From Mollicutes bacterium (GTDB taxonomy: Bacteria; Bacillota_I; Bacilli_A; RF39; UBA660), in the NCBI GenBank assembly GCA_003560455.1, contig PWIL01000034.1, forward strand, positions 1 to 34,754: a DNA stretch of 34,754 nt. The letters run 5' to 3'. Each line of letters starts with the position of its first letter. Position 1 is the stretch's first letter. This document shows, one piece after another, positions 1,775 through 30,916 of the stretch. Position numbers and translations under genes: made by a program. Under the pieces are notes generated by a model that made no database searches, was not told where the DNA came from, and saw only the letters and a list, made by a program, of their open reading frames with translations.

Positions 1775-3328
1775 ATGGAAAATATAGCTATCTCCACTCT
1801 CTTAGTTTTAATTGGATTATTTGTCGGAATTATTTTAATGATTGTATTAAACAGTTTAAAATTATTTGGCGCTACTAAAAAAACTGATAAAATAATTGAA
1901 GAAGCAAAAAAAGAAGCCTCAAAAATAAAAAAAGATTATTTGTTAGAAGCTAAAGAAGAAGCACATAAAAATAAACGCGAAGTTGAAGAAGACATTAAAG
2001 AAAAGAAAAAAGAAATAAAAACAGCTGAAGAACGTTTAATGCAACGTGAATCGAACATTGATCGACGCGATGGTAATATGCAAAAAAGAGAACAATTATT
2101 AGATGAAAAAGATAATGAGTTAAACAAAAAACAAGAAATAATCCAAAAAGAATTGGCAGAAGTTGGAGAACTAAAAGAAAAAGAATTAAAAAAATTAGAA
2201 CAAATTACTAAAATTTCACGCGAAGAAGCTAAAAAACAATTTTTTGAAAAAGTTGAAGAAACACTGAATGTTGAACTTGCAAATTTCATTAAAGAAAAAG
2301 AAAGTGAAGCAAAAATAGTTGCTGATAAAAAATCACAACATATTCTAGTTGAAGCAATGCAAAGATATGCAAATGATGTATCAGTTGAACAAACTGTCAC
2401 CGTTGTAAATTTGCCAAGCGATGATGTGAAGGGGAAAATTATTGGTCGTGAAGGTCGTAATATTCGAACGATTGAAGCGGTAACAGGTGTTGACTTAATT
2501 ATTGATGATACCCCAGAAGCACTTGTTCTATCTAGTTTTGATCCACTAAGACGTGAAATAGCAAGAGTTACTGTTGAATCGTTAATTCGGGATGGCCGAA
2601 TTCACCCAGCAAGAATTGAAGAAATTTATGACAAAACTTGTAAAGATATTAAAGTTAAAATTCGCGAATATGGTGAAGAAGCATTATTTAATTTAGGAAT
2701 AACTAAAGTTGATCCAGCCTTAGTTGAAATGTTAGGAAAACTTCATTTTCGTTCAAGTTATGGTCAAAATGCTTTATTACATGCAATTGAAGTGGCTAAT
2801 TTAACCGGTATTTTGGCAGCTGAGTTAAATGAAAATGTTTTATTAGCTAAAAGAGCAGGCTTATTACATGATATTGGAAAATCAATTGATCATGAAATAG
2901 AAGGTAGTCATGTTGACATCGGAGTAGAAATTGCTGAAAAGTATAAAGAAGATCCAGTTGTTGTGGATGGTATAGCATCGCATCATGGCAATGTTGAACC
3001 GCAATCAGTTATTGCTAATTTAGTAGGTATCGCTGATGCATTATCAGCTTCTCGTCCAGGAGCAAGAAATGATTCATTAGAAAACTATATTAAAAGATTA
3101 CAAGAATTAGAAGCAATTGCCAATACAATGAGTGGCGTTGAAAAATCGTTTGCTATTCAAGCCGGACGTGAATTAAGGGTATTAGTTCAACCCGAAAAAA
3201 TAGATGATGTTGGTAGTTATAAAATGGCTCGTGATGTTAAAAATAAAATTGAAGAACAATTACAATATCCAGGTACAATTAAAGTAACCGTAATTCGTGA
3301 ATTACGAGCAACAGAAGAAGCTAAATAA
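1775..3328 (+). CDS. rny: Ribonuclease Y (membrane-anchored KH/HD endoribonuclease)
   Basis: An N-terminal TM helix is followed by a long E/K coiled coil, a KH domain ([26 protein letters not shown]) and an HD domain (LLHDIGK...ASHHG). ATG 1775 lies 7 nt after GGGAGG; the ORF-track TTG 1757 overlaps the SD. Confidence 0.96.
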
Positions 3329-3342
3329 GCTTCTTTTTTTAT

Positions 3343-3378
3343 GAAAAAAACACTAATTAAATTAGTGTTTTGTTTTTT
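3343..3378. terminator. Bidirectional terminator shared by rny (+) and the convergent coiled-coil gene (-)
   Basis: ACACTAAT (3350-3357) / ATTAGTGT (3361-3368) is flanked by an A-run upstream and a T-rich run downstream. The hairpin overlaps the stop codon (3362-3364) of the minus-strand gene. Confidence 0.7.
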
Positions 3379-4978
3379 CTTCATCTAATGATTTAACAAT
3401 GTTTTTTAAGTTATTCATTACATCATTCATTGATTTTTCAATTTCATCTAGTTGATCTAATAAAAATTGTTTGTCGGTTTTTGGTTCAACTAAAGGCTCT
3501 CTTGCAGGTTCAATATGATTTAAATCTTCATAGTCTTTAGCGGGTTGAAATGCTTGATTTATATCTTTTAAATTATCTTTTAGAATATCAGCATCTCGTT
3601 TAGCTTCTTGATTCTTATTTGCTTCTAATTCCTTAATTTGTTCTTGCATTTCAGTTTTTTTTGTTTCTAAGTTTTCTTTTCGTTCAATATTTCTATCTTC
3701 ATCTAAAATTTCTTTTGCCGGATTGCCCTGACTTAAATCTTCATATAAATCAGTTTCTTGTTTTTCAAAATTAGGAAGAGTTTTATCTAAATCTTTTAAG
3801 TGATCTTGCAAATATGCAATTTGTTTTTCGGCTTCAGGTGATTCTAGTTTTTTTAGTTTATCAATTTGCGCTTCGATGATTAATTTTTTTGCTAATAGTT
3901 GTTGTTGAGGGGTTCCTTTGGAATCTTTTAATACATCTTCACCTTCAAAATCCATTTCTTTTTCTTCCACATTGTTTTCTTTTGTTTCAAGACTTTCATT
4001 AGTATTTTCAATTATTTCATTATTTTGTGTTTGTTCAATTTCATTTTGTTGGCTGTCTAAATCAAAAACAGAGTCAACATTTATTTCTTCTTTTAAGTTA
4101 GTTATTTTGTCTTCAACCTCTTGTAATTCTTTTAACAATTTGGTTTTTTCAGGTGAAACCTCTTTTTCGTATTTAGATAATTTTTCAAAAAGAACCTCTT
4201 TTTCTTTTACATAAGCTTTTAATTCAGCTTCTTTTTGAATCTTCTCTTCATCGCTTAATGTCTTTTTTTCTTCCACTTTGGGTTCTTCAGTTTTTTGTTC
4301 CGGAATATTTTCTTCAACTTTAGGTTCTGGAGTCTTTTCTTCCACTTTAGGTTCTTCAACTTTTTGTTCTGGAATATTTTCTTCAACTTTAGGTTCTTCG
4401 CTTTTTGTCTCATAGTTTTCTGGAGTTGTTAACTCTTCTTGGTCAGGTGTTGGTGTTTCAACCATTTTTTCTTCTTGTTCATTCATTTTAATGTTGATGG
4501 CGTCAATTTTATCTTCTAATTCAACAATTTCATCAATTCGTTCATACATCACTTTCGGACCTAAGTTTTTTAATTCTTTTAACTCAGCTTCAAGAGCACT
4601 TTTTTGTTCGGTTAATGATTGTTCTTCCTTTTTAGGTTGTAATTCATTTATTTTTTGATCAATTTTAGCAAGATATTGATTTAACTCTTCTTTTTCCTCA
4701 TTAGTTAATTCATTTTCAAGTTTTTTTGCTTCAGCTAAAACATTTTCTTTTTCTCTTTTTAATTTTTCAATCATTCTTTTATTTTTGTCATTATCAATAT
4801 CTGGCGCTTCATTTTGTTTTGTTTCTGTATTTTGCCATTCTAACCACATGTTTTTATGTTTAATTCCTTCAAAAATTTCTTTTGGAATAGCACCAACTTT
4901 AGCACCCGTTAAGTTTATTGTTTGTTTTCCAATAGATTTAAAAATTATTTCTTGGTTATTGACATTAATTGAATTCAT
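3362..4978 (-). CDS. Hypothetical 538-aa Glu/Lys-rich coiled-coil protein with a short non-repetitive N-terminal domain
   Basis: AGGAGG lies 5 nt upstream of ATG 4978 and overlaps the stop of the upstream DUF1292 gene. About 90% of the protein has E/K/Q/L-rich heptad-like composition, plus a PKVEE repeat block. I recognise no family. Confidence 0.7.
   Translation of the reverse strand: MNSINVNNQEIIFKSIGKQTINLTGAKVGAIPKEIFEGIKHKNMWLEWQNTETKQNEAPDIDNDKNKRMIEKLKREKENVLAEAKKLENELTNEEKEELNQYLAKIDQKINELQPKKEEQSLTEQKSALEAELKELKNLGPKVMYERIDEIVELEDKIDAINIKMNEQEEKMVETPTPDQEELTTPENYETKSEEPKVEENIPEQKVEEPKVEEKTPEPKVEENIPEQKTEEPKVEEKKTLSDEEKIQKEAELKAYVKEKEVLFEKLSKYEKEVSPEKTKLLKELQEVEDKITNLKEEINVDSVFDLDSQQNEIEQTQNNEIIENTNESLETKENNVEEKEMDFEGEDVLKDSKGTPQQQLLAKKLIIEAQIDKLKKLESPEAEKQIAYLQDHLKDLDKTLPNFEKQETDLYEDLSQGNPAKEILDEDRNIERKENLETKKTEMQEQIKELEANKNQEAKRDADILKDNLKDINQAFQPAKDYEDLNHIEPAREPLVEPKTDKQFLLDQLDEIEKSMNDVMNNLKNIVKSLDEEKTKH
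4271..4396 (-). repeat. Tandem 69-nt (23-codon) coding repeat, two copies (EEPKVEENIPEQK[VT]EEPKVEEK..)
   Basis: TTCCACTTT..GGTTCTTCA..TTTTTGTTC.GGAATATTTTCTTCAACTTTAGGTTC occurs at 4271 and again at 4340 with a few substitutions. Confidence 0.85.
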
Positions 4979-8618: not shown

Positions 8619-9503
8619 ATGAAAAAAGGTTTTACATTAGTTGAAATGTTAGCAGTCATTGTGATTTTAGCATTATTGGTTATTTTGGTTATTCCCGCGG
8701 TATCGAATATTATTAGTAATTCGCGAACAAGATTGTATGATGTGCAAATCAAAAATATTGAGTTAGCAGCAAAAAATTGGGGAGCCGAAAATGTTGGAAT
8801 GCTACCAAGTGAAGAAGGCGGTAGTATTACTATTTATTTATATAATTTAAAAATGGGTGGCTTTATTGAAGATGACATTTTAGACCCGCTTTCTGGTGAA
8901 GAATTTCCGAATGATATTCAAATTGAGATAACTCGCGAACGCAATAGTTTTAAATATTTTGTATTAACTGATACGGGAACGCCAGGCGGGATTACTGGTT
9001 ATGATGAAATAGTTATTATTTTGATTGGTGCAACTGAAGATACGGTTGAAATTAATAGTGGTTTTCCCGGCGTCGGGCCTGATGATATTGTTGCCTATGC
9101 GGCAGATGGAACAATAATTGCTAATGCCTATATTTCTATTACCATAACCGAAAATGGCAGTCCAGTTGGCAGTGTTGATGTAACTGGATTTAATGATTAT
9201 GAAATATTATATGAAGTTAACTTTGGGGGCAAATCAGCTAGCGTTGAACGGACATTAGAAGTAGTTGATACAACACCACCAGAATTAATTGTCCCACCTG
9301 AAACAACGATTTCAGCTGCTGAATGTAATGCTCCGTATGATTTAGAAACAGATATTTTAGTTAGTGATAATAGTGGCTCATATAATCTTGAAATTAATGG
9401 TAGTCTTAATTGTACCGCGCCTTCAACGAATGTGATTGAATATGTGGCTACTGACGCTAGTGATAATGAAACAATTCGTGAACGAACAATTTATGTCGAG
9501 TAA
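8619..9503 (+). CDS. Prepilin-type N-terminal cleavage/methylation domain protein with a C-terminal Ig-like (DUF5011/HYR-like) module (modular pilin/pseudopilin)
   Basis: MKKGFTLVEMLAVIVILALLVILVIP is a class-III signal: G|FTLxE with E at +5, then a hydrophobic helix. The C-terminus DTTPPELIVPPETTISAAE...VIEYVATDASDNETIRERTIYV resembles DUF5011-type Ig-like domains. ATG 8619 follows AGGTGA. Confidence 0.8.
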   Translation: MKKGFTLVEMLAVIVILALLVILVIPAVSNIISNSRTRLYDVQIKNIELAAKNWGAENVGMLPSEEGGSITIYLYNLKMGGFIEDDILDPLSGEEFPNDIQIEITRERNSFKYFVLTDTGTPGGITGYDEIVIILIGATEDTVEINSGFPGVGPDDIVAYAADGTIIANAYISITITENGSPVGSVDVTGFNDYEILYEVNFGGKSASVERTLEVVDTTPPELIVPPETTISAAECNAPYDLETDILVSDNSGSYNLEINGSLNCTAPSTNVIEYVATDASDNETIRERTIYVE

Positions 9504-10630
9504 AAAGGATTTTTATCCTTTTTTTCTTGGGTGATATTAATAATCATCCCAACTAAGAAAAAATAACTTAGTAAGCTAGACCCCCCAGCACTAATAAAGG
9601 GAAGAGTAATTCCGGTTAGGGGCAGAAGGCCAAAAGTCATACCGATATTTTGGACTTGTTGATAAAATAAAATCCCAATAAAACCAGCAATTAAATATTG
9701 GTTTTTTTGTTTGGTAGTTAAGGCTATTTTGATCAGTAAATAATAAAACCAACCAAAAATAAGAAAAAGTAAAATAATGCCAATAAAACCAAAATTATTC
9801 GCAAAAACGGCAAAAATAAAATCAGTTTGTGGTTCTGGAAAATAAGGAGCAGTTTTCCCAATACCACTACCGGTTAAATGACCAGCACTAATTGCAATTT
9901 GGCCATGTTCTAATTGAAAACCAGCTTGTGATTGCCAATCTAAAAGCCGATCAACTCTTAAGAAAAAGTCAGTTCCAAGGAGCTTAATAAATAAATCGGT
10001 ATTCCAAAAAAATAAACTTAAAATAGTTGTAATTAATGCCACAAATGCGCCACTTAAATAAAAAAACCAGCGTAATCTAATGCCACTAATAAAAAGAATG
10101 ATTATTGTTGAAAATAAATAAATAATAACTATTCCAGTATCGGGCTGTAATAAAGTTAAAAGACTTGGAATACTAACAATTAAGAATATTTTAACTAAAA
10201 AAACAAACTCTTCTTTTGGTGTTGGTCGCTGATGCTTTTGATTAAAATTTGCAATTAAATTAGCGATTAATAAAATAAGAATAATTTTCATAAATTCGCT
10301 TGGTTGAAAGGTGCCGATATTAGGAATAATATACCAACGATAAGTATTATTAATTGGTTCGGCAAAAAATAAAAGACCAAGTAATAAAAAATTAAAAATA
10401 ACATATAAACCCCAACTTAAATTAAAAAATATTTTATTCTCGTTGTTCATAATTACTAGTATCAGTCCAAACCCCAATAAATACCAAACAATCTGTCGAT
10501 AAAAAAGATTAATATCAAAAATTGAAAAAGACAATTGGACACTATATAAAGTTATTAAACTAATTAAAAAAAACAAAAACAAAATAATAAAAATATTTTT
10601 ATTGGCCTTAATTTTATTAATTATTTTCAT
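9491..10630 (-). CDS. SEDS-family peptidoglycan glycosyltransferase (FtsW/RodA/SpoVE family)
   Basis: A protein of about 10 TM helices with motifs FQPSEFMKI, QPDTGIVII and TGITLPFISAGGSSLL. I cannot tell from sequence alone whether it is FtsW or RodA. Confidence 0.9.
   Translation of the reverse strand: MKIINKIKANKNIFIILFLFFLISLITLYSVQLSFSIFDINLFYRQIVWYLLGFGLILVIMNNENKIFFNLSWGLYVIFNFLLLGLLFFAEPINNTYRWYIIPNIGTFQPSEFMKIILILLIANLIANFNQKHQRPTPKEEFVFLVKIFLIVSIPSLLTLLQPDTGIVIIYLFSTIIILFISGIRLRWFFYLSGAFVALITTILSLFFWNTDLFIKLLGTDFFLRVDRLLDWQSQAGFQLEHGQIAISAGHLTGSGIGKTAPYFPEPQTDFIFAVFANNFGFIGIILLFLIFGWFYYLLIKIALTTKQKNQYLIAGFIGILFYQQVQNIGMTFGLLPLTGITLPFISAGGSSLLSYFFLVGMIINITQEKKDKNPFYST
9503..9526. terminator. 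Hairpin terminator in the convergent overlap of the pilin-like gene and the SEDS gene
   Basis: AAAAGGAT (9503-9510), loop TTTT, ATCCTTTT (9515-9522), with the T-run continuing to 9525. It lies inside the last codons of the minus-strand ORF. Confidence 0.6.
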
Positions 10631-10681
10631 AATCCTTCACCTAGATTTATCATACCTTAAAAAGGAATAAGTTGCAATTGG

Positions 10682-10710
10682 TTGAGAAATTTTTAAATTT
10701 GTAGTATAAT
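10682..10710 (+). promoter_or_regulatory. sigmaA-type promoter for the EIIB-like gene
   Basis: TTGAGA (10682-10687), a 17-nt spacer, then TATAAT (10705-10710). Confidence 0.6.
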
Positions 10711-10725
10711 GACTTTGGTGATGAA

Positions 10726-11040
10726 ATGGATTATTTAACTTACTTGATAATGATCATTTTTTTATTTGTAATTGCATTAGCAATCGTCCATACCCGTAAA
10801 AAAGATTTTAAAATAAAAGTAAATAAATTGGTTGACTCATTAGGCGGTCAAAATAATATCGTTGATTATGAATTTAACAAATCACGTTTTATCGTGACTT
10901 TAAAAGATGTTAATTTAGCTAATAAGAGTGCAATTCAAAAAATGGGTGCTAAAGGAATAGTTGAAATTGAAAATCAACTTAAAATTATTTTGGACAATAA
11001 TGCGATACAATTAAAAAAATATATCAAAGAATTAAAGTGA
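10726..11040 (+). CDS. Membrane-anchored PTS EIIB(Glc)-like domain protein lacking the phospho-accepting Cys
   Basis: One N-terminal TM helix, then LVDSLGGQNNIVDYEFNKSRFIVTLKDVN....IQKMGAKGIVEI. This aligns by eye with E. coli PtsG-IIB [29 protein letters not shown]...[11 protein letters not shown], and the catalytic C of the 'C-I-T-R-L-R' motif is N here. Confidence 0.65.
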   Translation: MDYLTYLIMIIFLFVIALAIVHTRKKDFKIKVNKLVDSLGGQNNIVDYEFNKSRFIVTLKDVNLANKSAIQKMGAKGIVEIENQLKIILDNNAIQLKKYIKELK

Positions 11041-11064
11041 AAATTCACTTTTTTTCTTTTGTCG

Positions 11065-11073
11065 TGTTATAAT
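11065..11073 (+). promoter_or_regulatory. Extended -10 promoter element (TGtTATAAT) for murG
   Basis: TG at 11065-11066 and TATAAT at 11068-11073. It is preceded by a weak hairpin with a T-run (about 11036-11056) after the EIIB-like gene. Confidence 0.5.
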
Positions 11074-11092
11074 ATTTTTAGGAGGATTGGTT

Positions 11093-12157
11093 ATGCGAAT
11101 AATAATTAGTGCTGGTAGTTCCGGTGGTCATATTTATCCAGCGCTTTCCTTAATAAAAATTATTAAACAACTAAACCCACAAGTTGAATTTTTGTATGTT
11201 GGTCGAAAAGATAGTTTAGAAGAAAAAGAGGTTAAGAGTTATGACATTCCTTTTTTTGCAATTAAAAGCTATGGATTTGATCGAAAAAATAAACTAAAAA
11301 ATCTTCGTTTAATTGGGTTATTTCTTAAAAATTATTTTACTTTACGAAAAAAAATTAAACAATATCAACCAGATGTTGTTTTGGGCTTTGGGGGGCATGT
11401 AACAATACCGGTTATTTTTGTTGCTTCAAAATTAAAAATTAAAACTTACATTCATGAGCAAAATAAAATTATTGGTAAAGCAAATCTTTTTTTAAGCAAA
11501 TATGTTGATGCTATTTTACTTTCATTTCCCGAAACTTTAAAAATACCTAAAAAGGTTAAAACAATTTATACCGGTAATCCGGTTATGGAAAACGCTTTAA
11601 AAATTGAAAAATTTTCCAAAACTGAATTAGGATTAACAAAAAACAAAAAATTAATTTTAATTATGTTGGGTTCACTTGGCGCCCAAAATGTTCATCAATA
11701 TTTAATGGCAAATTTAACAAAACTAACCAGAAACAATTATCAAATTGTTTATGTGACTGGACCGCGCCATTTTGATGAAAAAGCAGCGAATAACATGCCT
11801 AATGATATTATTGTGCTTTCGTATTTCAAAGATTTAGTTAGACTAATGAAAGAAGCTGATTTAATTGTTTCAAGAGCAGGTGCAACTACGTTAGCCGAAC
11901 TAATTGCTTTACGAAAACCAGCATTATTAATCCCCAGTCCCTTTGTTCCGGATAATCATCAAGAATATAACGCTAATTATTTGATCGATAAAAATGCAGC
12001 GGTGCTATTACCAGAAAAAGATTTAGAAAATTTAATTTCTAAAATTGAAAAATTAATTATGGATACTGATTTAATCAAGCAAATGCAAACAAATTTAGGT
12101 AAAATAAAAATTGACAATAGTGGTCAACTTATATATAATGTTTTAAAGCAAGGATAG
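11093..12157 (+). CDS. murG: UDP-N-acetylglucosamine--N-acetylmuramyl-(pentapeptide) pyrophosphoryl-undecaprenol GlcNAc transferase
   Basis: Motifs SAGSSGGHIYPALSL and SRAGATTLAELIALRKPALLIPSP...HQEYNA. ATG 11093 lies 7 nt after AGGAGG. Confidence 0.93.
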   Translation: MRIIISAGSSGGHIYPALSLIKIIKQLNPQVEFLYVGRKDSLEEKEVKSYDIPFFAIKSYGFDRKNKLKNLRLIGLFLKNYFTLRKKIKQYQPDVVLGFGGHVTIPVIFVASKLKIKTYIHEQNKIIGKANLFLSKYVDAILLSFPETLKIPKKVKTIYTGNPVMENALKIEKFSKTELGLTKNKKLILIMLGSLGAQNVHQYLMANLTKLTRNNYQIVYVTGPRHFDEKAANNMPNDIIVLSYFKDLVRLMKEADLIVSRAGATTLAELIALRKPALLIPSPFVPDNHQEYNANYLIDKNAAVLLPEKDLENLISKIEKLIMDTDLIKQMQTNLGKIKIDNSGQLIYNVLKQG

Positions 12158-12166
12158 GGGGAGCAG

Positions 12167-13063
12167 ATGGATTTAACAACAGAATTAGAAAAATTAAATT
12201 GTGGTTTAGTAAAAAAAGAAGAACCATTAACCAAATATACAACTTATCAATTAAAAGGAACAATTAAGAACGTTATTTTTCCGGAAAATATAGAACAATT
12301 AAAAAAACTTTTAAATTTTTTGCGCGAAAAAAAAGAACGGCACTTAGTTATCGGTAGCGGTTCTAATATTATATTTTCAGCTGATTATTATGATGGTGTT
12401 TTAATCAAACTAAATAAATTTCAAGATTTAAAAATCGAAAAAGACAAAGTATTTGTGGAAAGTGGCTATAATTTAAGTAAATTGGCTTATTTATTATCTA
12501 AAAAAGGTTTATTAGGTTTAGAGTTTGCAACCGGAATTCCTGGTACACTTGGTGGCGCTGTTTATATGAATGCTGGTGCTTATGGTTCCGCCATGAATGA
12601 GGTTATTGAAAAAGTTGTTGTTTTAACTCCAAAATTAGAAATAAAAGAACTATCGAATGCTGAACTAAAATTTGCTTATCGGCAATCATTTTTGCAAACA
12701 AACAAAGAATATATTTGTTTAGCGGTTACTCTCCAATTAAAATTTGGTGATATTGAAAATGCCCTAGCATTAATTGCAGATCGTAAACAAAGACGGCTTA
12801 ATTCCCAACCTCTTGATTTTCCAAGTGCTGGTAGTGTCTTTCGTAATCCAGAAAATGATTATGCTGGTCGTTTAATTGAAGAATTAAATTTAAAAGGCTA
12901 TCAAATTGGTGATGCCAAAGTAAGTTGCAAACATGCTAATTTTATTATTAATATTGGCAAAGCAAGTGGTCAAGATGTTCAAAAATTAATTCAGGAAATA
13001 CAAACAAGAGTATTTGAAAAATATGCTGTTAAATTAAAAGTAGAACAAGAAATAATCGAGTAG
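12167..13063 (+). CDS. murB: UDP-N-acetylenolpyruvoylglucosamine reductase
   Basis: FAD-binding region (VIGSGSNIIF), GIPGTLGGAVYMNAGAYG, the catalytic region PSAGSVFRNP, and the C-terminal KHANFIIN. Confidence 0.93.
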   Translation: MDLTTELEKLNCGLVKKEEPLTKYTTYQLKGTIKNVIFPENIEQLKKLLNFLREKKERHLVIGSGSNIIFSADYYDGVLIKLNKFQDLKIEKDKVFVESGYNLSKLAYLLSKKGLLGLEFATGIPGTLGGAVYMNAGAYGSAMNEVIEKVVVLTPKLEIKELSNAELKFAYRQSFLQTNKEYICLAVTLQLKFGDIENALALIADRKQRRLNSQPLDFPSAGSVFRNPENDYAGRLIEELNLKGYQIGDAKVSCKHANFIINIGKASGQDVQKLIQEIQTRVFEKYAVKLKVEQEIIE

Positions 13064-13071
13064 GTGATTAA

Positions 13072-13776
13072 ATGCCCAAGAAAAAAAAACGAGTCAAAAA
13101 AGCAAAAAAAACCAAAAAAATTAATCGCAAAAAGTTCTTTTTAGGATTAGTTGTTTTTTTATTTTTAGGAGTAATCGTTTTTTTAATCGGCCAAATACCA
13201 ACGAGAAATATTTTTATTTCTGGAAATTCATCTTTATCTGACCAAGAAATTATTGCTTTAGCAGAATTAGAAGATTATCCAAAACTTTTATTTTCTCGTA
13301 GTAGTGAAATTCGGCAAAAATTAATTAACGATGATTATATTTTAGAAGCCAAAGTTAAGAGACAAAGATTTATCGAGTTACATATTGAAATAAAAGAAAA
13401 CAAACCGCTTTTTTACATTGACTATGATCAAAAAACTATTTTTATTGATGGCTTAGAAATTGATAAATTTTACAATGTGCCTGTCTTATTAAATTATGTT
13501 CCGCAAGTTGTTTACGAAGGTTTTTTAGATGAATTTAATAAAATTGATGATAATATTCGGGCGAAAATATCGGAAATTCGTTATTATCCAACGGAAATTG
13601 ATGAAGAGCGGTTTTTATTTTATATGGTTGATGGTAATTATGTGTTTGTTAATTTGCAAACAATGTTAGATATAAATGATTATTTAGCCATTATGGAAAA
13701 TATTATTGCTAATTTTGGTTTGAAAAATGGAACTCTTTATTTAGATGCAGGGGGCTATTTTGAAGTAATTGATTAA
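13072..13776 (+). CDS. divIB: Cell division protein DivIB/FtsQ (POTRA-containing)
   Basis: A Lys-rich cytoplasmic N-terminus, one TM helix, then a POTRA-like region (IFISGNSSLSDQEII). Its position between murB and ftsA fits. Confidence 0.8.
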   Translation: MPKKKKRVKKAKKTKKINRKKFFLGLVVFLFLGVIVFLIGQIPTRNIFISGNSSLSDQEIIALAELEDYPKLLFSRSSEIRQKLINDDYILEAKVKRQRFIELHIEIKENKPLFYIDYDQKTIFIDGLEIDKFYNVPVLLNYVPQVVYEGFLDEFNKIDDNIRAKISEIRYYPTEIDEERFLFYMVDGNYVFVNLQTMLDINDYLAIMENIIANFGLKNGTLYLDAGGYFEVID

Positions 13777-13839
13777 AATCTGTCTTTTAATTTTTAAGAA
13801 AGTATAGTATAATAAAAAATGAATATAGGAGATGATAGC

Positions 13840-14997
13840 ATGAGGAAAATTTATACAAGCGTTGACCTTGGTTCTGATTATATCAAAGTCGTTGTTCTTG
13901 AATTACATCATAATAAATTAAATCTTTTAGCCGCTTCCTCTGTTAAATCTTCTGGTATAAAAAAAGGATTAATTACTAATGCAACTGCGGCATTATCTTC
14001 ATTACAAACAGCAATCGAAGAAGTAGAAGGAATCTTACATACTAAAATTAAAAGAGTTTTAACGTCGATTCCGGCTCATAATGCTGAATATATTTATGCT
14101 CAAGGAACAATCAAGATTGAACGGGAAGATAAAAAAATTAATAGTGAAGATATTAATGAAATTTTTCGAAAAGTAATTAAAGATCGGGTGCGGTTTGATT
14201 ATGAATTAATTACAATTCATCCCATTGATTTTACGGTTGATGATCGAACTGAATTAAAAAATCCGAAAGGATTAACTGGCGATGAATTAAGTGGCCGAGT
14301 TATTATTGTTGCTACGCCGAAAAAAAATATTTATTCAGTGGTTAGTTTAATTGAAGCCGCTAATTTAGAAGTAGTTGATGTTTCAATTAATAGTATTGGT
14401 GATAGTTATACTCTAAGAAATGAAAAAACGGCTACTGAAGTAGGGGCGATAGTTAATCTTGGTGCTGAGACAACAACAGTCGCAATTTTTAATAAAGGAA
14501 TTATTACTAATGCTTCAGTTATTCCCTTGGGTAGTCGAAAAATTGATAGTGATATTGCCTATATATTTAAATTATCTTTGCATAATGCTAATAAGTTAAA
14601 AGAAAAATTTTCAACCGCTCATCGTCGCTATGCGTCAGCAGAAAACATTCGTGAAATAGAAAATGTTGATAAAGAAGAAATAAAAATAAATCAATATGAA
14701 TTATCTGAAGTAGTCATGTTTCGAGCGGAAGAAATCTTAAATTTAGTAAAAAAAGAGCTTAAAGCTTTGACTAATAAAAAAATGCAGTATATAATATTAA
14801 CAGGTGGTGGTAGTCATTTAGCAAATATTACCGAGTTAGCAACTAATGTTTTAGAAGAAAAAGTATTGCTTGGTGATGTTAAAGTGGTTGGCGCTCGTAA
14901 TAATAGATTTTCATCAGCAGTGGGCAATATCGTATATTTTATTAATAAGTTAAATCTAAAAGGAAAACAATATTCAATGTTTAGTTCTAGTGATTAA
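13840..14997 (+). CDS. ftsA: Cell division protein FtsA (as written, lacks a C-terminal membrane-targeting helix)
   Basis: Actin-fold motifs: YTSVDLGSDYIKVVV, VNLGAETTTVAIF and ILTGGGSHLANI. ATG 13840 lies 8 nt after AGGAG. The ORF stops at TAA 14995-14997 inside the expected C-terminal linker (see findings). Confidence 0.92.
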   Translation: MRKIYTSVDLGSDYIKVVVLELHHNKLNLLAASSVKSSGIKKGLITNATAALSSLQTAIEEVEGILHTKIKRVLTSIPAHNAEYIYAQGTIKIEREDKKINSEDINEIFRKVIKDRVRFDYELITIHPIDFTVDDRTELKNPKGLTGDELSGRVIIVATPKKNIYSVVSLIEAANLEVVDVSINSIGDSYTLRNEKTATEVGAIVNLGAETTTVAIFNKGIITNASVIPLGSRKIDSDIAYIFKLSLHNANKLKEKFSTAHRRYASAENIREIENVDKEEIKINQYELSEVVMFRAEEILNLVKKELKALTNKKMQYIILTGGGSHLANITELATNVLEEKVLLGDVKVVGARNNRFSSAVGNIVYFINKLNLKGKQYSMFSSSD

Positions 14998-15081
14998 GAT
15001 AAAATTAGCGATGTTCATGGTGATGAAATATTAGGAAGTTCAACATTAGGAAAAGTATTTGGCTTTTTCACAAATGAATAA
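14998..15081 (+). other. In-frame post-stop extension of ftsA encoding a putative amphipathic membrane-targeting helix
   Basis: It reads [27 protein letters not shown], then TAA (15079-15081) embedded in the ftsZ SD. There is no start codon or SD of its own. Confidence 0.5.
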
Positions 15082-15091
15082 GGAGGATTAT

Positions 15092-16156
15092 ATGTTAGGT
15101 TTAGAAATGGATCAGTTGGCAAAAATAAAAGTATTAGGAATTGGTGGTGGTGGTAATAATGCTGTTAATCGCATGATTGAATCCGGAGTTAAAGGGGTTG
15201 AATTTATTGTTGCTAATACTGATTTGCAAGTTTTAAACAATTCAAAGGCACCAATTAAAATTCAATTAGGCGAAGAATTAACTAATGGTTTAGGTGCTGG
15301 TGCGGATCCAGAAATTGGTAAAAATGCAGCACTAGAAACAAAAGAGGAACTAAAAAAAGTTTTAGAAGGCGCGGATATGGTTTTTGTCACTTGTGGTATG
15401 GGTGGCGGAACAGGTACTGGTGCAGCACCGGTTATTGCTGAAATAGCTAATGAAATTGGCGCATTAACAGTTGGTATTGTCACTAAACCATTTTCATTTG
15501 AAGGCAAGAAGAGAATGGAACAAGCTTTAGTTGGTTTAGAAGAATTAAAAAAGCATGTTGATACATTAATTATAATTCCGAATGATCGTTTAAGAGATAT
15601 TATTGATAAATCAACACCATTATTAGAATCGTTTAAAGAAGTTGATAATGTTTTAAGACGTGGTGTTCAGTCTATATCGGATTTAATTGCCGTTGCTGGT
15701 TTAATTAACTTAGATTTCGCTGATGTTAAAGCGGTTATGGAAAAACGTGGAACTGCTTTAATTGGTATTGGGATTGGCGTTGGCGAAGGTCGAGCAATCG
15801 AGGCCTCGCGTGAAGCTGTTTCAAGTCCACTACTTGAAACAAGTATTAATGGCGCAACTGATGCAATTATTAATGTAACAGGTGGTTCTAATTTAACTTT
15901 ATTTGAAGTAGAAGAAGCCGCAGAAGAAATTCGTGCTTCAGCAAATACTGATATTAATACTATTTTTGGAGCAGTTATAAATGAAAATTTGCAAGATGAA
16001 ATTATTGTCACGGTCATTGCAACGGGATTTGATGATGGCGATGAAAATAAAGTTACTTATCATCAACATACAAGACGTGAGGGTTTAAAAGAAGATATTG
16101 AAGAAATCGAAGATGAAGAAGACATCCCCGCGTTTATTCGAAAAGGTAGAATATAA
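15092..16156 (+). CDS. ftsZ: Cell division GTPase FtsZ
   Basis: Motifs [16 protein letters not shown] and [16 protein letters not shown], plus the C-terminal peptide [14 protein letters not shown] 15092 lies 6 nt after AAGGAGG; the ORF-track TTG 15059 start was rejected. Confidence 0.97.
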
Positions 16157-16163
16157 AAAAATG

Positions 16164-16193
16164 TAAAGTTATTAATTTAACTTTATTTTTTTT
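16164..16193 (+). terminator. Rho-independent terminator after ftsZ
   Basis: TAAAGTTA (16164-16171) / TAACTTTA (16178-16185), then T8 (16186-16193). The stem is AT-rich. Confidence 0.6.
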
Positions 16194-16204
16194 AAAAAAA
16201 AATA

Positions 16205-16213
16205 TGTTATAAT
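16205..16213 (+). promoter_or_regulatory. Extended -10 promoter element (TGtTATAAT) for the GLUG-repeat prepilin gene
   Basis: TG at 16205-16206 and TATAAT at 16208-16213, about 40 nt upstream of SD AAAGGAG (16241-16247). Confidence 0.5.
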
Positions 16214-16252
16214 TAATTTGATAATAAGTTTTAAGAATAAAAAGGAGACTAT

Positions 16253-18531
16253 ATGAAAAAAAAGGCTTTACTTTAATAGAATTATTAGCAGTAATTGTAA
16301 TATTAGCAATTATTCTTTTAATTGTGATACCAATAGTTTTAAATGTTATTAATGACGCTAGAAAAGGAGCGTTTGAAGCGACAGCAATGGGACTTTTAAA
16401 AACAGCTGAAAATGAGTGTTTAGCAGAAATGTTAAAAGGAACAGGTTTAATTAAAGAAGTTGAATTTAATGATTGGCAAATAACTAGTGAAGATGAATTA
16501 GCTTTTTCAGGAAGAGGAGCTAAAGGTGGAGATATTCATGTCAATGCTCAATGTAAAATAGCAATGGCAATTCATAATGGTGATTGGTGTATTACAAAAG
16601 AATATGATAGTGATGAAATAGTGACAACACCTTATGATGGTGAATGTGGTTTGGGAGAATCATTTGTTTTTTCATGTGATAATGAAGGTTACCCTTGTCT
16701 TCAGTGGGAAGGCAATCCATCATGGGGGACTGTTATTCAAGATGCTGGTGTCCAAGAAATTGAAACACGGGTTGCTACTGGCGATGAAATTGAGATTCAT
16801 AATTGGCATGATTTGCGGGCAATTGATGCGAATGAAGAAAATTTGAACAAAGAATATATTCTTATGGCCGATTTAAATAGTGATAGTCCCGGTTATGAAG
16901 AATATGTTAGCAATCCTAGTGATGGTTGGGATCCAATTAGTGATATAACACTCGAATATATAGTTGATGTTTCATCAGCAACTGGCGGCGGTTTTGTTCT
17001 TAGTGGTTATTGTGAAAACTCAGATAACAATTTTGAAGTAGGCCCGATAGATTATGATATTAATCAAGAAGGGTTAGATAATCTTTTTGGTTGGAATCAA
17101 GAATATTGGGATGAAGTAAAATTTTCTACATATGAAGTGATAGAAGAAGGGCGTTATCGATTTGTTTTTAGTGGTCCAGGGGGAGGGATTAAACCGTTTG
17201 ATGCTGAATTAACAGTGGATGACCAAACTTTAAATGGGGAAGCTAATATAGAGCATAAACCGCCATTTACAGGTTCATTTGATGGTAATGGTTATACGAT
17301 AGATGCTTTAATTATTGATAAATCAAATTTAGACGGTATTGGATTATTTGGATTAGTAAAAGATGCTGAATTTATTAATGTAGCATTAAGTAATATTAAT
17401 ATAAATGGAAATGATCATGTTAGCGGGTTAATAGGTTATGGTAGTGGTGATGTTGATATAGTAAATTCCTATATTGAAGGAGAAGTTGTCGGAAATGAGG
17501 AAGTAGGTGGAATAATTGGGTTTTTGCGTGAAGGAAATATTAATCTTGAAAATTCATATTTTGCTGGTAATGTTTTAGGCGATAGTGAAGTAGGTGGAAT
17601 AATTGGGTTTAGTCGTGATTCAAATGTTAGCATTGAAAACTCATATTTTACCGGTGACATTGCTGCTGATGACGAATGTGTTGGCGGATTAATAGGTTAT
17701 GCTGATACTGGTAAAGTTGAAATTGAAAACTCTTATGTTGAAGGTGATATTTTAGCATCAGGTAGTTATATTGGTGGTTTAGTTGGTTATATTTATGAAG
17801 ATGAAGCAGAAAATCGCGCCCAAATAACAAATTCCTATTTTGAAGGAAATATTACAGGCGAACATTTAATAGGTGGTTTAATTGGTTTTTATTTTAATTG
17901 GCAAGAACCTCTTCAAGACGCTCAAATAATAAATTCTTACGTCAAAGGGAATCTTCAAGGAGAGTATAGTGTTGGCGGATTAATTGCTCAAAGTTTTCGA
18001 GATATTAAGATAACAAATTCCTATTTTGAAGGAGAAGTTTTAGGTGGTTTTAATGTTGGTGGTTTAGTTGGTGAAAGTTATAAAAATCTAGAAATAGAAG
18101 AGACTTATATAAAGGCTGATGTATTTGCAAATAATGATGTGGGTGGTATCATAGGTTATATTGATTCACTTGTAGACATCATAATAACAAATTCTTATGG
18201 AAAAATTAATGTTACTGGTTTATCAGGAACTGTTGGTGGTTTGACACCGATAATGTTGCATGATGTAAATTATTTACAGATAACCAACTTTTATTTAGTT
18301 AGTGATATAACTGGTGGCGATGATTCTGGAGTAATTATTGGGATCGTTTATAGCGAACCTAATATTACCATAAATTCTTCTTTTTTTAATGGTGATATCA
18401 ATGAAAATTTAGATGCAGTAGGTACTGGCGAGAGTGTCAATTTTATTAATTCTAATACAGAGGATATGTTAATAAAAAACACATATGAAGAAGAAGGTTG
18501 GGATTTTGAAGAAATCTGGCAGATAGAATAA
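16253..18531 (+). CDS. Large modular prepilin-type protein: class-III signal/pilin module plus GLUG-motif repeat domain. It requires a -1 shift (or one extra A) at the A8 tract 16256-16263
   Basis: SD + ATG 16253 + A8 gives MKKKALL-stop in frame 0. The -1 frame from 16264 reads GFTLIELLAVIVILAIILLIVIP... and continues for 756 codons to TAA 18531. Downstream motifs: W.PI, FTGSFDGNGYTIDALII, GIGLFG and about 11 copies of NSY.xG.v.g...VGGLIGy (GLUG motif). Confidence 0.6.
16258..16264 (+). other. A_AAA_AAG slippery heptamer / A8 homopolymer at codons 2-4 of the prepilin gene
   Basis: A AAA AAG sits in the ATG frame, and the initiation SD ends 10 nt upstream (16247). A -1 slip puts GGC (16264) in frame. 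Confidence 0.5.
17314..18432 (+). repeat. Array of about 11-12 degenerate 27-34-codon GLUG-motif coding repeats
   Basis: Protein-level periodicity follows the pattern NSY[FIV].G.[VIL].G...VGG[LI]IG[FY]. An exact 24-nt duplicate GAAGTAGGTGGAATAATTGGGTTT occurs at 17500-17523 and 17587-17610. ACAAATTCCTATTTTGAAGGA recurs at about 17827 and about 18011. Confidence 0.85.
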
Positions 18532-22976: not shown

Positions 22977-24866
22977 ATGAAAAAATTAAAATATTTAATC
23001 TTTTTATTGCTTTTTATTTTTATCCCAACTTTAAAAGCTGATGTTATCAGTGATTATTATATGGATATTCAAGTTTTAGATGATGGAAATTTAAAAGTTC
23101 GTGAAATATTTATGCTTGAAGGTGAATATGAAAATGGCTATCAACGAGAAATTGTTTTTAATAATTTAAATTCACCAGCTTTTAATAATGATGTTGAATC
23201 GTTTAAACAAAGTGATATCTATAATATGTCTGGTGTGGAAGTTTTAGAAGTTCGTTTTTTAAAAAGAGATGGACAGTTATCTTTTGCTGATTTAGATCGG
23301 GATGGTGTAACGGCAGAATTAGATCAAAATGCTTATCGTGGTGAATTTGGCAAGTATAAAGTTGCTCGTCATGTGGATAGGAATAAACAAGAAAAACAAA
23401 TCACAATGTATAATCCCGGTTTAAGAAATCATCCGATTTTTTATGTTGAATATATTTTAAAAGATGCAGTTGTGCTTCATCAAGATGTTGCTGAAGTATA
23501 TTTAAATATTTTTACTGAACAAATGCGTGAAGCAGTTCGCAATATGGAAATAAGAGTTAATATTCCAGGCAATCAAGATGAAGTTCGACTTTGGGGTCAC
23601 GGACCTTTGCATGGGAGCAGTGAAATTGTTGATCAAGAAAATTTATTGTTTGAGATAAAAAATTTAAACGCCAGGACGCCATTAACAATTCGTTTTGTTT
23701 TTGATAAAGATGTAATTGCAAGTGCTGAAAAAACTACTGAAGTTGAAGCTCTGCCTTTAATTTTAGAAGTTGAGGAAATGCGAGCAGATGCTGCTAATCG
23801 GCAACGTCAACTTTTTCAGGCTTTAAACTTTGTTTTTTATATTGTTGTGGTTATTTGGTTGTATTTTGTGGTTCAAGCAGTCCGCAAAGCCTTTGAAGTT
23901 ACTAAACCATATCAAACAACTTTTCGGACAAGATATTTTCGGGATTTTCCCAATGATTATCCGCCAACAGTTGTTAGTTTTTTATTAAATGAGAAAATAG
24001 AACGAAGAGATATTTCAGCGACTATTTTAGATTTAATCCAAAGAAAAGTAATCGCTTATCGAACTGATAACAAAAAAAATTATATTTTCACCCGTAATAC
24101 CGGTCAGTTTGAATTAACCGAAAGTGAAGAATATTTACTAACATTTTTATTCAATGATATTGGAAAAGCAGGGTCGGCATCAGGGGTTAATAGCAGTGAA
24201 TTTACAATTCGTGATGTCAATTCTTATGCTAGAAAAAATAGTCAAACCTTTATCAATAAATATGATCGTTGGTGGACGCTTGCTACTTCGGAAGCTCGTC
24301 AATATGATTTTTTCTATGATACTTTTCCGGAAGAAAAAAAAGCCATGTGGATTTCGGCAATTGGATTTATCTTATTTTTTATCGCCATATATATTGAACA
24401 ATTTTTATTAATGGCGGTCGTGTTTATTATTCCGTTTGTTGTCAATATTTATTTTGGAATGCGGAAAAAAAGAAAAAAACATGCTAATGAAAGTTATGTT
24501 CGTTGGATGGGTCTAAAAAACTTTCTTGACGATTTTGGTAATTTTAAAGAACGGGAACTGCCCAAAATTGAATTATGGGAAAAATATTTAGTTTACGCAG
24601 TGGTCTTTGGTAATGCGCAAAAATTATCCAAACAAATGAAAATTAAATTTAAAGAGGTTCCAGATAATCAACATTTTAATCATCATTTACTTTATATTGG
24701 TACTTTTTCAGCTTTAAATAGCTCATTATCGACAGGCTTTACTAGAAGTTTTAATACGGCAAGATCAACGATTGCTTCTCAATCATCGTCTGGTGGTGGC
24801 TTTGGTGGCGGCTTTTCTGGTGGCGGTGGCTTCGGCGGCGGTGGCGGCGGCGGCGGTCGCTTTTAA
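22977..24866 (+). CDS. DUF2207 domain membrane protein with a Gly-rich C-terminal tail
   Basis: Signal peptide, large extracytoplasmic domain, TM segments, a cytoplasmic region, more TM segments, then the tail SSSGGGFGGGFSGGGGFGGGGGGGGRF. This architecture, and the pairing with LemA, is typical of DUF2207. Confidence 0.8.
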   Translation: MKKLKYLIFLLLFIFIPTLKADVISDYYMDIQVLDDGNLKVREIFMLEGEYENGYQREIVFNNLNSPAFNNDVESFKQSDIYNMSGVEVLEVRFLKRDGQLSFADLDRDGVTAELDQNAYRGEFGKYKVARHVDRNKQEKQITMYNPGLRNHPIFYVEYILKDAVVLHQDVAEVYLNIFTEQMREAVRNMEIRVNIPGNQDEVRLWGHGPLHGSSEIVDQENLLFEIKNLNARTPLTIRFVFDKDVIASAEKTTEVEALPLILEVEEMRADAANRQRQLFQALNFVFYIVVVIWLYFVVQAVRKAFEVTKPYQTTFRTRYFRDFPNDYPPTVVSFLLNEKIERRDISATILDLIQRKVIAYRTDNKKNYIFTRNTGQFELTESEEYLLTFLFNDIGKAGSASGVNSSEFTIRDVNSYARKNSQTFINKYDRWWTLATSEARQYDFFYDTFPEEKKAMWISAIGFILFFIAIYIEQFLLMAVVFIIPFVVNIYFGMRKKRKKHANESYVRWMGLKNFLDDFGNFKERELPKIELWEKYLVYAVVFGNAQKLSKQMKIKFKEVPDNQHFNHHLLYIGTFSALNSSLSTGFTRSFNTARSTIASQSSSGGGFGGGFSGGGGFGGGGGGGGRF

Positions 24867-24902
24867 GCAAACAATCATAAATATATTTTTGCAACATGAT
24901 AG

Positions 24903-24931
24903 TTGTTGTTTTTAGTAAAAGAAATTATAAT
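24903..24931 (+). promoter_or_regulatory. sigmaA-type promoter for trmB
   Basis: TTGTTG (24903-24908), a 17-nt spacer, then TATAAT (24926-24931). Confidence 0.5.
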
Positions 24932-24948
24932 TAAAGAGAGGTTTATCA

Positions 24949-25575
24949 ATGCGAGTTCGAAAAGTTCCTGATGCGGAAATAAAAATTTTTAATCATCCCT
25001 TAGTTATTAAAGATAGTCAACAATATCGAGAGGCACATTATAAATTATTTCAAAATCAAAATCCAATTCATTTGGAAATTGGTATGGGCAAGGGGGGGTT
25101 TATTCTTCAAAAAGCGATCGAAAATCCCCATCTTAATTTTATTGGTTTAGAAAAAGATGCAAGTATTTTATATCGAGCATTAGCAAAAATATCACCCGAA
25201 ATTAAAAATGTCCGTTTTATTTTGGCTGATGCAAATAAAATAACTGAAATATTTGATGATGAAATTTCTGTTTTATATTTAAATTTTTCCGATCCCTGGC
25301 CAAAAAACAGACATCACCAAAGAAGATTAACAAATTTAACTTTTTTGAAAAAATATCAGTTAATTTTAAAAAAGAAAGCAGTCATTATTTTTAAAACTGA
25401 TAATAAAAGTTTTTTTGATTATTCATTAGAACAATTTACAATAGGTGGTTTTAAAGTAATCGAAAAGAGCTTAAATTTGCATCAAAAGCAGATAACCCAA
25501 ATTATGACTGAATATGAAAAAAAATTTCATCAAAAAAAATTACCAATTTATTATTTAAAATTAAGCGTCAACTAA
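24949..25575 (+). CDS. trmB: tRNA (guanine46-N7)-methyltransferase
   Basis: Motifs HLEIGMGKGGFI, NFIGLE and NFSDPWPKNRHHQRRL. Confidence 0.92.
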   Translation: MRVRKVPDAEIKIFNHPLVIKDSQQYREAHYKLFQNQNPIHLEIGMGKGGFILQKAIENPHLNFIGLEKDASILYRALAKISPEIKNVRFILADANKITEIFDDEISVLYLNFSDPWPKNRHHQRRLTNLTFLKKYQLILKKKAVIIFKTDNKSFFDYSLEQFTIGGFKVIEKSLNLHQKQITQIMTEYEKKFHQKKLPIYYLKLSVN

Positions 25576-29817: not shown

Positions 29818-30916
29818 ATGGAACTAAATGAAATCGAAAAAATATTAATTGATCATCAAGCAAGAGCTGATGAATTATGGAGGTTACTTTGAAGTAGCAA
29901 CCTTAAAAAAAGAAGTTGATGATTTAAACTTAAAAATGAATAGCGCAGATTTTTGGCAAGACCAAAAAGAAGCACAAAAAATTATCAATCAACGCAATCA
30001 AAAACAAACAATTATTACTGATATTGAAACATTACAAAAAGATATTAATTCTAACTTAGAATTGGTTAATTTATTAAAAGAAGAAGTAGATGAAGAAATT
30101 AAACAAAATGTTATCAATGATTTAGAAAGATTAACCAAAGAAATAGATAAATTAGAGATTAAATTGTTACTTAATCAAAAATATGATAAAAATGATGCTG
30201 TCTTTGAAATTCATTCCGGTGCCGGTGGTACTGAAGCTAATGATTGGGTTGCCATGTTATACCGGATGTATTTAAGATATTTTGAACATAATGATTATCA
30301 ATATGAGATATTAGGTGAAATCAAAGGCGATGAAGTTGGCTATAAAAGTGTCGTTATTTTAGTAAAAGGCTTATTTGCTTATGGCTATTTAAAATATGAA
30401 CATGGTGTTCATCGTTTGGTACGAATATCACCATTTGATTCAAATGCTAAAAGACATACATCTTTTGCTTCAGTTGATGTTGTTCCATATTTTAATGAAG
30501 AAATTGATTTAGAAATAAATGAAAAAGATTTAAAAATAGATGTTTATAAAAGTAGTGGTGCTGGTGGTCAATCGGTAAATACAACTGATAGTGCTGTACG
30601 AATAACTCACCTGCCATCAAAAATAGTCGTTACTTGTCAAAACGAAAGAAGTCAAATAAAAAATAAAGAACAAGCTTTAAAGATATTGAAAAATAAATTA
30701 TGGACGATTGAAGAAACCAAAAAAGAAGAATCATTAAAAGCGATTCGTGGCGATGTCATTGATATTAATTTTGGTTCACAAATCAGAAGTTATGTCATGC
30801 ATCCGTATTCAATGGTCAAAGATCATCGAACTAATACCGAAGTTACTAATGTTGAAAAAGTATTAGCTGGTGATATCAATCAATTTATCAATGATAATTT
30901 AAAAAGAAAGGACTGA
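29818..30916 (+). CDS. prfB: Peptide chain release factor 2, with programmed +1 frameshift: join(29818..29889,29891..30916)
   Basis: Frame 0 reads MELNEIEKILIDHQARADELWRLL, then TGA (29890-29892). The +1 frame continues EVATLKKEV...FWQD..., with SPF (RISPFDS) and GGQ (SGAGGQSVN) motifs. Confidence 0.95.
29879..29892 (+). other. RF2 autoregulatory +1 frameshift site
   Basis: GGAGG (29879-29883), a 3-nt spacer (TTA), then CTT TGA (29887-29892). This is the canonical internal SD + CUU UGA arrangement. Confidence 0.9.

Follow-up and report, generated by a model that had tools for sequence, protein, structure and literature searches.

In the 34,754-nucleotide contig PWIL01000034.1 of a Mollicutes bacterium, the whole of which we call the window, ftsA lies directly upstream of ftsZ, and its reading frame carries an in-frame TAA at codon 386. 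The frame reads ...KGKQYSMFSSSD, followed by the TAA (14995–14997), 27 open codons and a second TAA (15079–15081), from which 10 nucleotides lead to the ftsZ ATG at 15092. A preliminary description made from the sequence alone had placed the ftsA start, both stops, the 27 codons and the ftsZ start at exactly these positions, and had read the second TAA, which overlaps the AAGGAGG ahead of ftsZ, as the usual tight junction between the two genes. The same kind of junction is present in relatives: a gap of 9–10 nucleotides separates ftsA from ftsZ in a conspecific contig (L001) and in two contigs of sister species (L024 and L026), and the order murG-murB-divIB(POTRA)-ftsA-ftsZ, that of the division and cell wall (dcw) cluster, is identical in the window and in these three contigs. 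The FtsZ encoded here ends in what we take to be the canonical FtsA-binding C-terminal peptide. Coordinates of the locus are collected in Table 1.

Table 1. Features of the ftsA–ftsZ locus, in window positions
Feature	Position	Strand	Remarks
ftsA Shine-Dalgarno sequence AGGAG	13827..13831	+	8 nt 5' of ATG 13840; read from the sequence
ftsA codons 1–385: actin-like core and first three residues of predicted helix 383–394	13840..14994	+	
Premature TAA at codon 386 (ancestral CAA, Gln386); C>T at 14995	14995..14997	+	
ftsA codons 387–413: remainder of predicted helix 383–394, flexible linker, C-terminal motif	14998..15078	+	
Predicted membrane-targeting amphipathic segment, codons 403–413	15046..15078	+	Conservation, hydrophobic moment, AlphaFold2 model
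Ancestral ftsA stop TAA	15079..15081	+	Same stop in L001 (gene 3308–4549)
ftsZ Shine-Dalgarno sequence AAGGAGG, overlapping the ancestral ftsA stop	15080..15086	+	Read from the sequence
ftsZ, 354 aa	15092..16156	+	Pfam Tubulin and FtsZ_C

The deposited FtsA of the window (P0001, 392 residues) and the longest open reading frame (ORF) both begin at an upstream ATG, 13819. We favor ATG 13840 as the likely start because AGGAG precedes it at 13827–13831 and because most relatives begin with M(R/K)KIY at the equivalent position. A few relatives, P0003 and P0024, are annotated with the same upstream N-terminal extension as P0001.

FtsA and the segment beyond the stop

The product matches the Pfam profiles FtsA (PF14450; 89.5 bits, cut-off 31.8) and SHS2_FTSA (PF02491; 45.2 bits, cut-off 25.4), and a search of PDB sequences matched it over residues 4–365 to Staphylococcus aureus FtsA (3wt0/3wqt) at E = 1.5e-39. 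Because the solved FtsA structures, taken as PDB chains, align to residues 4–366, the core of the protein is untouched by the stop. An AlphaFold2 model of the intact 413-residue protein, built on an alignment of 27 sequences, has a mean predicted local distance difference test (pLDDT) score of 85.6 and a predicted template modeling (pTM) score of 0.83 and is confident to about residue 393. It places a confident helix at residues 383–394, and residues 394–413 follow with pLDDT below 50 and a short helix at 402–407; this predicted layout is the usual one of a flexible linker and a membrane-induced helix. In the model the stop at codon 386 cuts into the confident helix and would remove most of it along with the linker and the putative membrane-targeting segment. 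The preliminary description had the frame stopping right after the actin-like core and ahead of the linker and C-terminal motif. The second half of that statement stands, whereas the first has to be amended, as the TAA falls within helix 383–394 and not at the edge of the core.

Canonical FtsA proteins, those of Escherichia coli, Streptococcus pneumoniae, Bacillus subtilis and Thermotoga maritima, share with this one the FtsA and SHS2 domains, the structural alignment and the position in the dcw cluster 5' of ftsZ. They also share the arrangement of a core, a low-confidence linker and a short C-terminal segment with a hydrophobic face. A disordered linker joins the FtsA core to the membrane-targeting sequence (MTS), which is an essential amphipathic helix in E. 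coli (PMC4252000). The case considered here differs in that the linker and MTS are cut from the core by a TAA in one assembly and in that the predicted tail motif is clade-specific, with no sequence match to any PDB chain; the tail searched alone against PDB sequences gave no match even at E values up to 10. The C-terminus of FtsA is known to serve in membrane targeting (PMC4252000), and on that ground we predict that codons 403–413 bind the membrane. The translated form of this helix lies outside the ORF in the present assembly, owing to the TAA at 14995, and inside it in the allele of the same species described below (P0121).

How strongly the sequence beyond the stop speaks for itself depends on which of its properties is considered. 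That the frame stays open is weak evidence, as had been conceded at the outset: 27 open codons have a chance probability of 0.08 from base composition (30% G+C) or 0.04 from the off-frame stop frequency, and 5 of the 32 other ORFs of the window are open for at least 27 codons past their stops. The spacing of Leu403, Val406, Phe407 and Phe410 at i, i+3, i+4 and i+7 is as first reported. The best 11-residue stretch of the tail has a hydrophobic moment of 0.57 (range 0.54–0.57), at the 96th percentile within the protein. The amphipathic pattern does not carry weight as stand-alone evidence, because 813 of 5000 shuffles of the 27-residue tail (16%) reach the same moment. The amphipathicity is moderate, and we set the hydrophobic moment aside as primary evidence.

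Homology is more informative. A search with the 413-residue read-through product returned 2227 homologues, and the 119 others among the matches listed are 408–422 residues long and cover 99–100% of the query; the sole short protein among these matches is P0001, from the window itself. In alignments of 20 and 27 sequences at 48–69% identity, no gap interrupts the match of the tail to the C-terminus of its relatives, ...(M/T)LGK(V/I)FG(Y/F)Fxx E, with Phe407 and Phe410 invariant and Glu413 at least 90% conserved among the 27. It is this gap-free alignment and the full length of the homologues, and not openness, from which we conclude that the 27 codons after the stop are the genuine C-terminus of this FtsA family. 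The relatives also suggest how the tail evolves. In a codon alignment with L024 (P0002, 69% identity), L026 (P0007, 63%) and L002 (66%), the ratio of nonsynonymous to synonymous differences (pN/pS) among the relatives is 0.39–0.77 in the tail and 0.31–0.39 in the core. These values indicate that purifying selection acts on the tail across the clade, less strictly than on the core.

A conspecific ftsA allele with CAA at codon 386

The conspecific comparator was reached only via a protein cluster look-up. The 90%-identity cluster of P0001 has one other member, P0121, encoded on the Joint Genome Institute (JGI) contig SL_9KL_010_SEDDRAFT_10003151 (L001; sample 3300000365, soda-lake sediment). P0121 is 413 residues long and identical to the read-through product of the window, with Gln at the position of the stop. 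Over window positions 10533–17992 (7.46 kb), the two contigs are 99.72% identical, and in the 1242-nucleotide ftsA the sole difference is the T of the window against a C in L001 at 14995, which makes the codon TAA in one and CAA in the other. The DNA of the tail (14998..15078) is 100% identical, and ftsZ differs by one synonymous change. Nine other unambiguous differences were found in the well-aligned stretch, eight of them synonymous and one missense. This excess of synonymous changes indicates that the window and L001 represent real, slightly diverged strains of one species, whose differences bear the mark of selection and not of random noise.

Codon 386 is CAA in L001 and also in L024, L026 and L002. 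The stop is thus not conserved, which was the comparison proposed in the preliminary description, and with CAA in the conspecific contig and three relatives, we take CAA to be the ancestral codon and the T of the window to be a private C>T transition. The same transition turns a GATC, as present in L001, into GATT and so destroys a GATC site. Further searches disclosed no second copy of the T allele. An exact 28-mer pattern around the stop, with N at 14995, had no match in metagenome contigs; protein-guided scans of genome and metagenome contigs gave loci of at most 66% identity; the truncated products (392 and 385 residues), when looked up, led to no other contig encoding either; and a look-up with FtsZ led to L001 only.

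The presence of an intact ftsA on another contig of the same species argues for a recent mutation or an error and not for a new mechanism. The stop is private to this assembly, young and unprogrammed, whether it is an allele or an error, and the ftsA of the species is 13840..15081, an ordinary gene of 413 codons that encode a core, a short linker and a conserved C-terminal segment. The proposal that the 27 codons are FtsA's own linker and C-terminal membrane-targeting motif is upheld by homology and by the intact conspecific allele. The finding itself is ordinary and belongs to a known category. Like other nonsense polymorphisms or consensus errors in metagenome-assembled genomes (MAGs), it is a one-base change private to one assembly with no downstream decay, and nothing sets the case of the window apart from them.

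There are nevertheless consequences for annotation. The deposited 392-residue FtsA is a truncated product whose start is called seven codons too early, and the 84 nucleotides before ftsZ that seem intergenic are coding sequence. P0001 should not be counted as tail-less in surveys of FtsA anchors in Tenericutes-like Bacilli.

Nonsense allele or consensus error

Sequencing error and recent nonsense mutation had been grouped as one option in the preliminary description, and it is this option that the comparisons select, as neither the conspecific contig nor any of the three relatives has the stop. Between its two halves, we lean toward a real nonsense allele, very recent in origin and carried by a strain or subpopulation, that entered the consensus at assembly, and we give this reading a probability of about one-half. 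One C>T transition at 14995 would have changed the conserved Gln386 codon from CAA to TAA in the source population. The product would be FtsA 1–385, in effect a natural FtsA-deltaCt that keeps the FtsZ-binding, polymerizing core; lacking the anchor, the linker and part of helix 383–394, it would presumably fail to tether FtsZ to the membrane. FtsZ would probably still be translated from its own strong Shine-Dalgarno sequence, and carrier cells would either rely on another anchor such as SepF or be unfit and short-lived.

Several observations sit well with this reading. There are only 11 sites in ftsA at which C>T or G>A would yield a stop; the one in codon 386 lies nearest the 3' end and is hence the least damaging, which weakly favors a tolerated real mutation. 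None of the other syntenic genes of the window differs in length from its orthologues, which speaks against an error-ridden assembly. In B. subtilis, FtsZ and SepF are sufficient for Z-ring formation, and cells that lack FtsA still grow and divide (PMC11790237), so that a real truncation in a member of the Bacilli would be costly and not necessarily lethal. For the same reason, a real T allele would be only mildly surprising: B. subtilis tolerates complete loss of ftsA (PMC11790237).

Laboratory constructs indicate what such a product might do. FtsA-deltaCt of S. pneumoniae polymerizes and does not attach to the membrane (PMC4252000), and deletion of the MTS in E. coli FtsA is described by Pichoff and Lutkenhaus 2005, as cited in PMC4252000. 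A real stop would be predicted to give the same core-only protein as in these engineered deltaCt and deltaMTS forms, which polymerize in the cytoplasm, unattached to membranes. Those are laboratory constructs, whereas here we would be dealing with a putative natural allele. If the T is both real and common, it amounts to a small natural experiment on the dispensability of the FtsA anchor in a SepF-era relative of the Firmicutes.

Other observations weigh against a real allele. The T is known from one assembly only, and an error in the consensus or base call fits exactly the same data. The MTS is essential in E. coli FtsA, and FtsA is essential in S. pneumoniae (PMC4252000), so a fixed nonsense allele would be costly in a walled bacterium. 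No SepF family match was found among the proteins of the 34.7-kb window. The undamaged tail, in turn, is uninformative either way: the 84 nucleotides after the stop carry no change, and only ~0.1 would be expected at 0.13% divergence.

That the T is instead an error of consensus, base call or assembly, that the organism has CAA and a 413-residue FtsA, and that nothing beyond a coordinate correction to 13840..15081 is called for, is a serious contender to which we assign somewhat less than an even chance. The change is a single base in an ftsA otherwise identical to that of a conspecific, all relatives have CAA, and a nonsense change is a priori suspect where many bacteria cannot do without the gene. 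Small disagreements between assemblies do occur in this data series: for the sister species, 2 bases per 10.7 kb distinguish an NCBI MAG contig from a JGI assembly. The preliminary description had tied such a correction to a sense codon at 14995–14997 in the reads; the sense codon we report comes from the conspecific assembly L001 and not from the window's own reads. On the other side, of the two assemblies that of the window is cleaner, with no Ns and with its other syntenic genes of orthologue length, whereas L001 has five Ns and a broken GLUG-repeat gene. The other differences between the two resemble real variation, being mostly synonymous (8 of 9). Moreover, if the contig was assembled with MEGAHIT from Illumina HiSeq 2000 reads, as in PMC6146748, its consensus substitutions would usually reflect alleles present in the reads. 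We also considered a systematic miscall at GATC as a methylation motif and rejected it, as all 12 remaining GATC sites of the 7 kb that the contigs share are intact.

A stronger form of the nonsense-allele reading, in which the T belongs to a viable strain, appears doubtful to us. It would mean that a walled, Izemoplasma-like soda-lake bacterium divides with an anchor-less FtsA by way of a SepF-type tether or rare UAA readthrough, and hence that this lineage can do without the FtsA MTS.

Two explanations in which the stop is a functional feature fare far worse, and both had been offered alongside error and recent mutation. In the first, low-level UAA readthrough at a maintained stop would yield a major soluble form, FtsA 1–385, and a minor full-length form that binds the membrane. 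The sole point in its support is that the downstream frame is intact and ends at a normal junction, and a change as young as this one, the only difference between ftsA and the conspecific allele, accounts for it in full. A maintained stop should be shared, yet the conspecific and three relatives have CAA and none of the 119 other listed homologues is truncated. No readthrough signal was seen: the predicted RNA fold of 14980–15100 (121 nt) is no better than shuffles (z = -0.49), no tRNA was found in the 34.7-kb window, and the window encodes release factor 2 (RF2) in a gene that has the UGA-dependent frameshift site. Of the three stop codons, UAA is the least leaky. UAA followed by G, the context found here, was reportedly a strong terminator in E. 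coli in the work of Poole et al. in 1995. We regard programmed readthrough as very improbable.

The second is an evolved tail-less FtsA served by another anchor, as proposed for some mycoplasmas, and its prospects are just as slim. The lineage is Tenericutes-related, the relatives being MAGs titled Bacilli, Tenericutes or Acholeplasmataceae, FtsA proteins without an MTS have been described in mycoplasmas (bioRxiv 10.1101/2023.08.29.555414), and the FtsA annotated in the window likewise has no amphipathic helix. The mycoplasma genes concerned lack the helix altogether, with compensation by SepF or by a helix on FtsZ (bioRxiv 10.1101/2023.08.29.555414). Here, unlike in the mycoplasmas, the helix-coding sequence is undecayed and 100% identical to that of the conspecific allele, which is intact and full length, and the clade as a whole conserves the tail motif. 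FtsZ is canonical, ending in an ordinary peptide and not in an amphipathic helix, and scans of the window revealed no adjacent sepF. The organism, furthermore, is walled, as the presence of murG, murB, ftsW and divIB attests.

Reassignment of TAA to a sense codon, already excluded in the preliminary description, can be put aside as next to impossible: among the 33 ORFs taken as genes, TAA ends 21, TAG 6 and TGA 6, the ends of TAA-terminated ORFs match orthologue lengths, and RF2 is encoded in the window. Genetic code 4 is likewise ruled out by stop-codon usage together with the RF2 frameshift site. Expression of the tail as a separate peptide was rejected as well; none of the start codons ATG, GTG and TTG occurs in frame in 14998–15078, and no Shine-Dalgarno sequence lies upstream.

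Organism and neighboring genes

The nearest named relatives are soda-lake and gut MAGs, and the closest sister species is found in NCBI assembly GCA_003559495.1 and JGI sample SL_3KL_010_SED. From Siberian soda-lake sediments, 16 Tenericutes MAGs related to the NB1-n group were reported from Illumina HiSeq 2000 data assembled with MEGAHIT (PMC6146748). The authors compare the predicted lifestyle of those MAGs with the proposal made in their reference on Candidatus Izimaplasma (PMC6146748). The contig considered here may belong to the same series.

The RF2 gene, prfB (window 29818–30916), is of the classical type with a programmed +1 frameshift. The frame opened by ATG 29818 meets an in-frame CTT TGA at 29887–29892, with GGAGG before it at 29880–29884, and from there the +1 frame is that of the long ORF (listed from 29849). 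The frameshift site shows that this organism, Tenericutes-like as it is, uses UGA as a stop.

Downstream of ftsZ, a gene for a 735-residue GLUG-repeat protein (window 16324–18531; L001 5792–7967) separates ftsZ from dcuC; in the sister-species contigs L024 and L026, dcuC follows ftsZ directly. The L001 copy is split into parts of 455 and 130 residues, with a cluster of differences and a 1-nucleotide indel at window 17635–17651. Beyond window 18042 the identity between the window and L001 falls from 99.7% to 94%, which could reflect the edge of a recombination event, a chimeric join or a region that varies between strains.

Two further differences in gene content set the window apart from L024 and L026. 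A gene of the ftsW/rodA family (9491–10630, minus strand) lies between a pilin-like (N_methyl) gene and a 104-residue gene upstream of murG and is absent at the equivalent position in both contigs. Conversely, an amidase gene (579–585 residues) follows the DUF2207 gene in L024 (16406–18145) and in L026 (15526–17283), where it directly precedes the Methyltransf_4 gene; in the window (24866–24949) it is missing, and only an 82-nucleotide spacer separates the DUF2207 and Methyltransf_4 genes. GATC is somewhat under-represented in the window as a whole, with 64 sites observed against ~91 expected from base composition.

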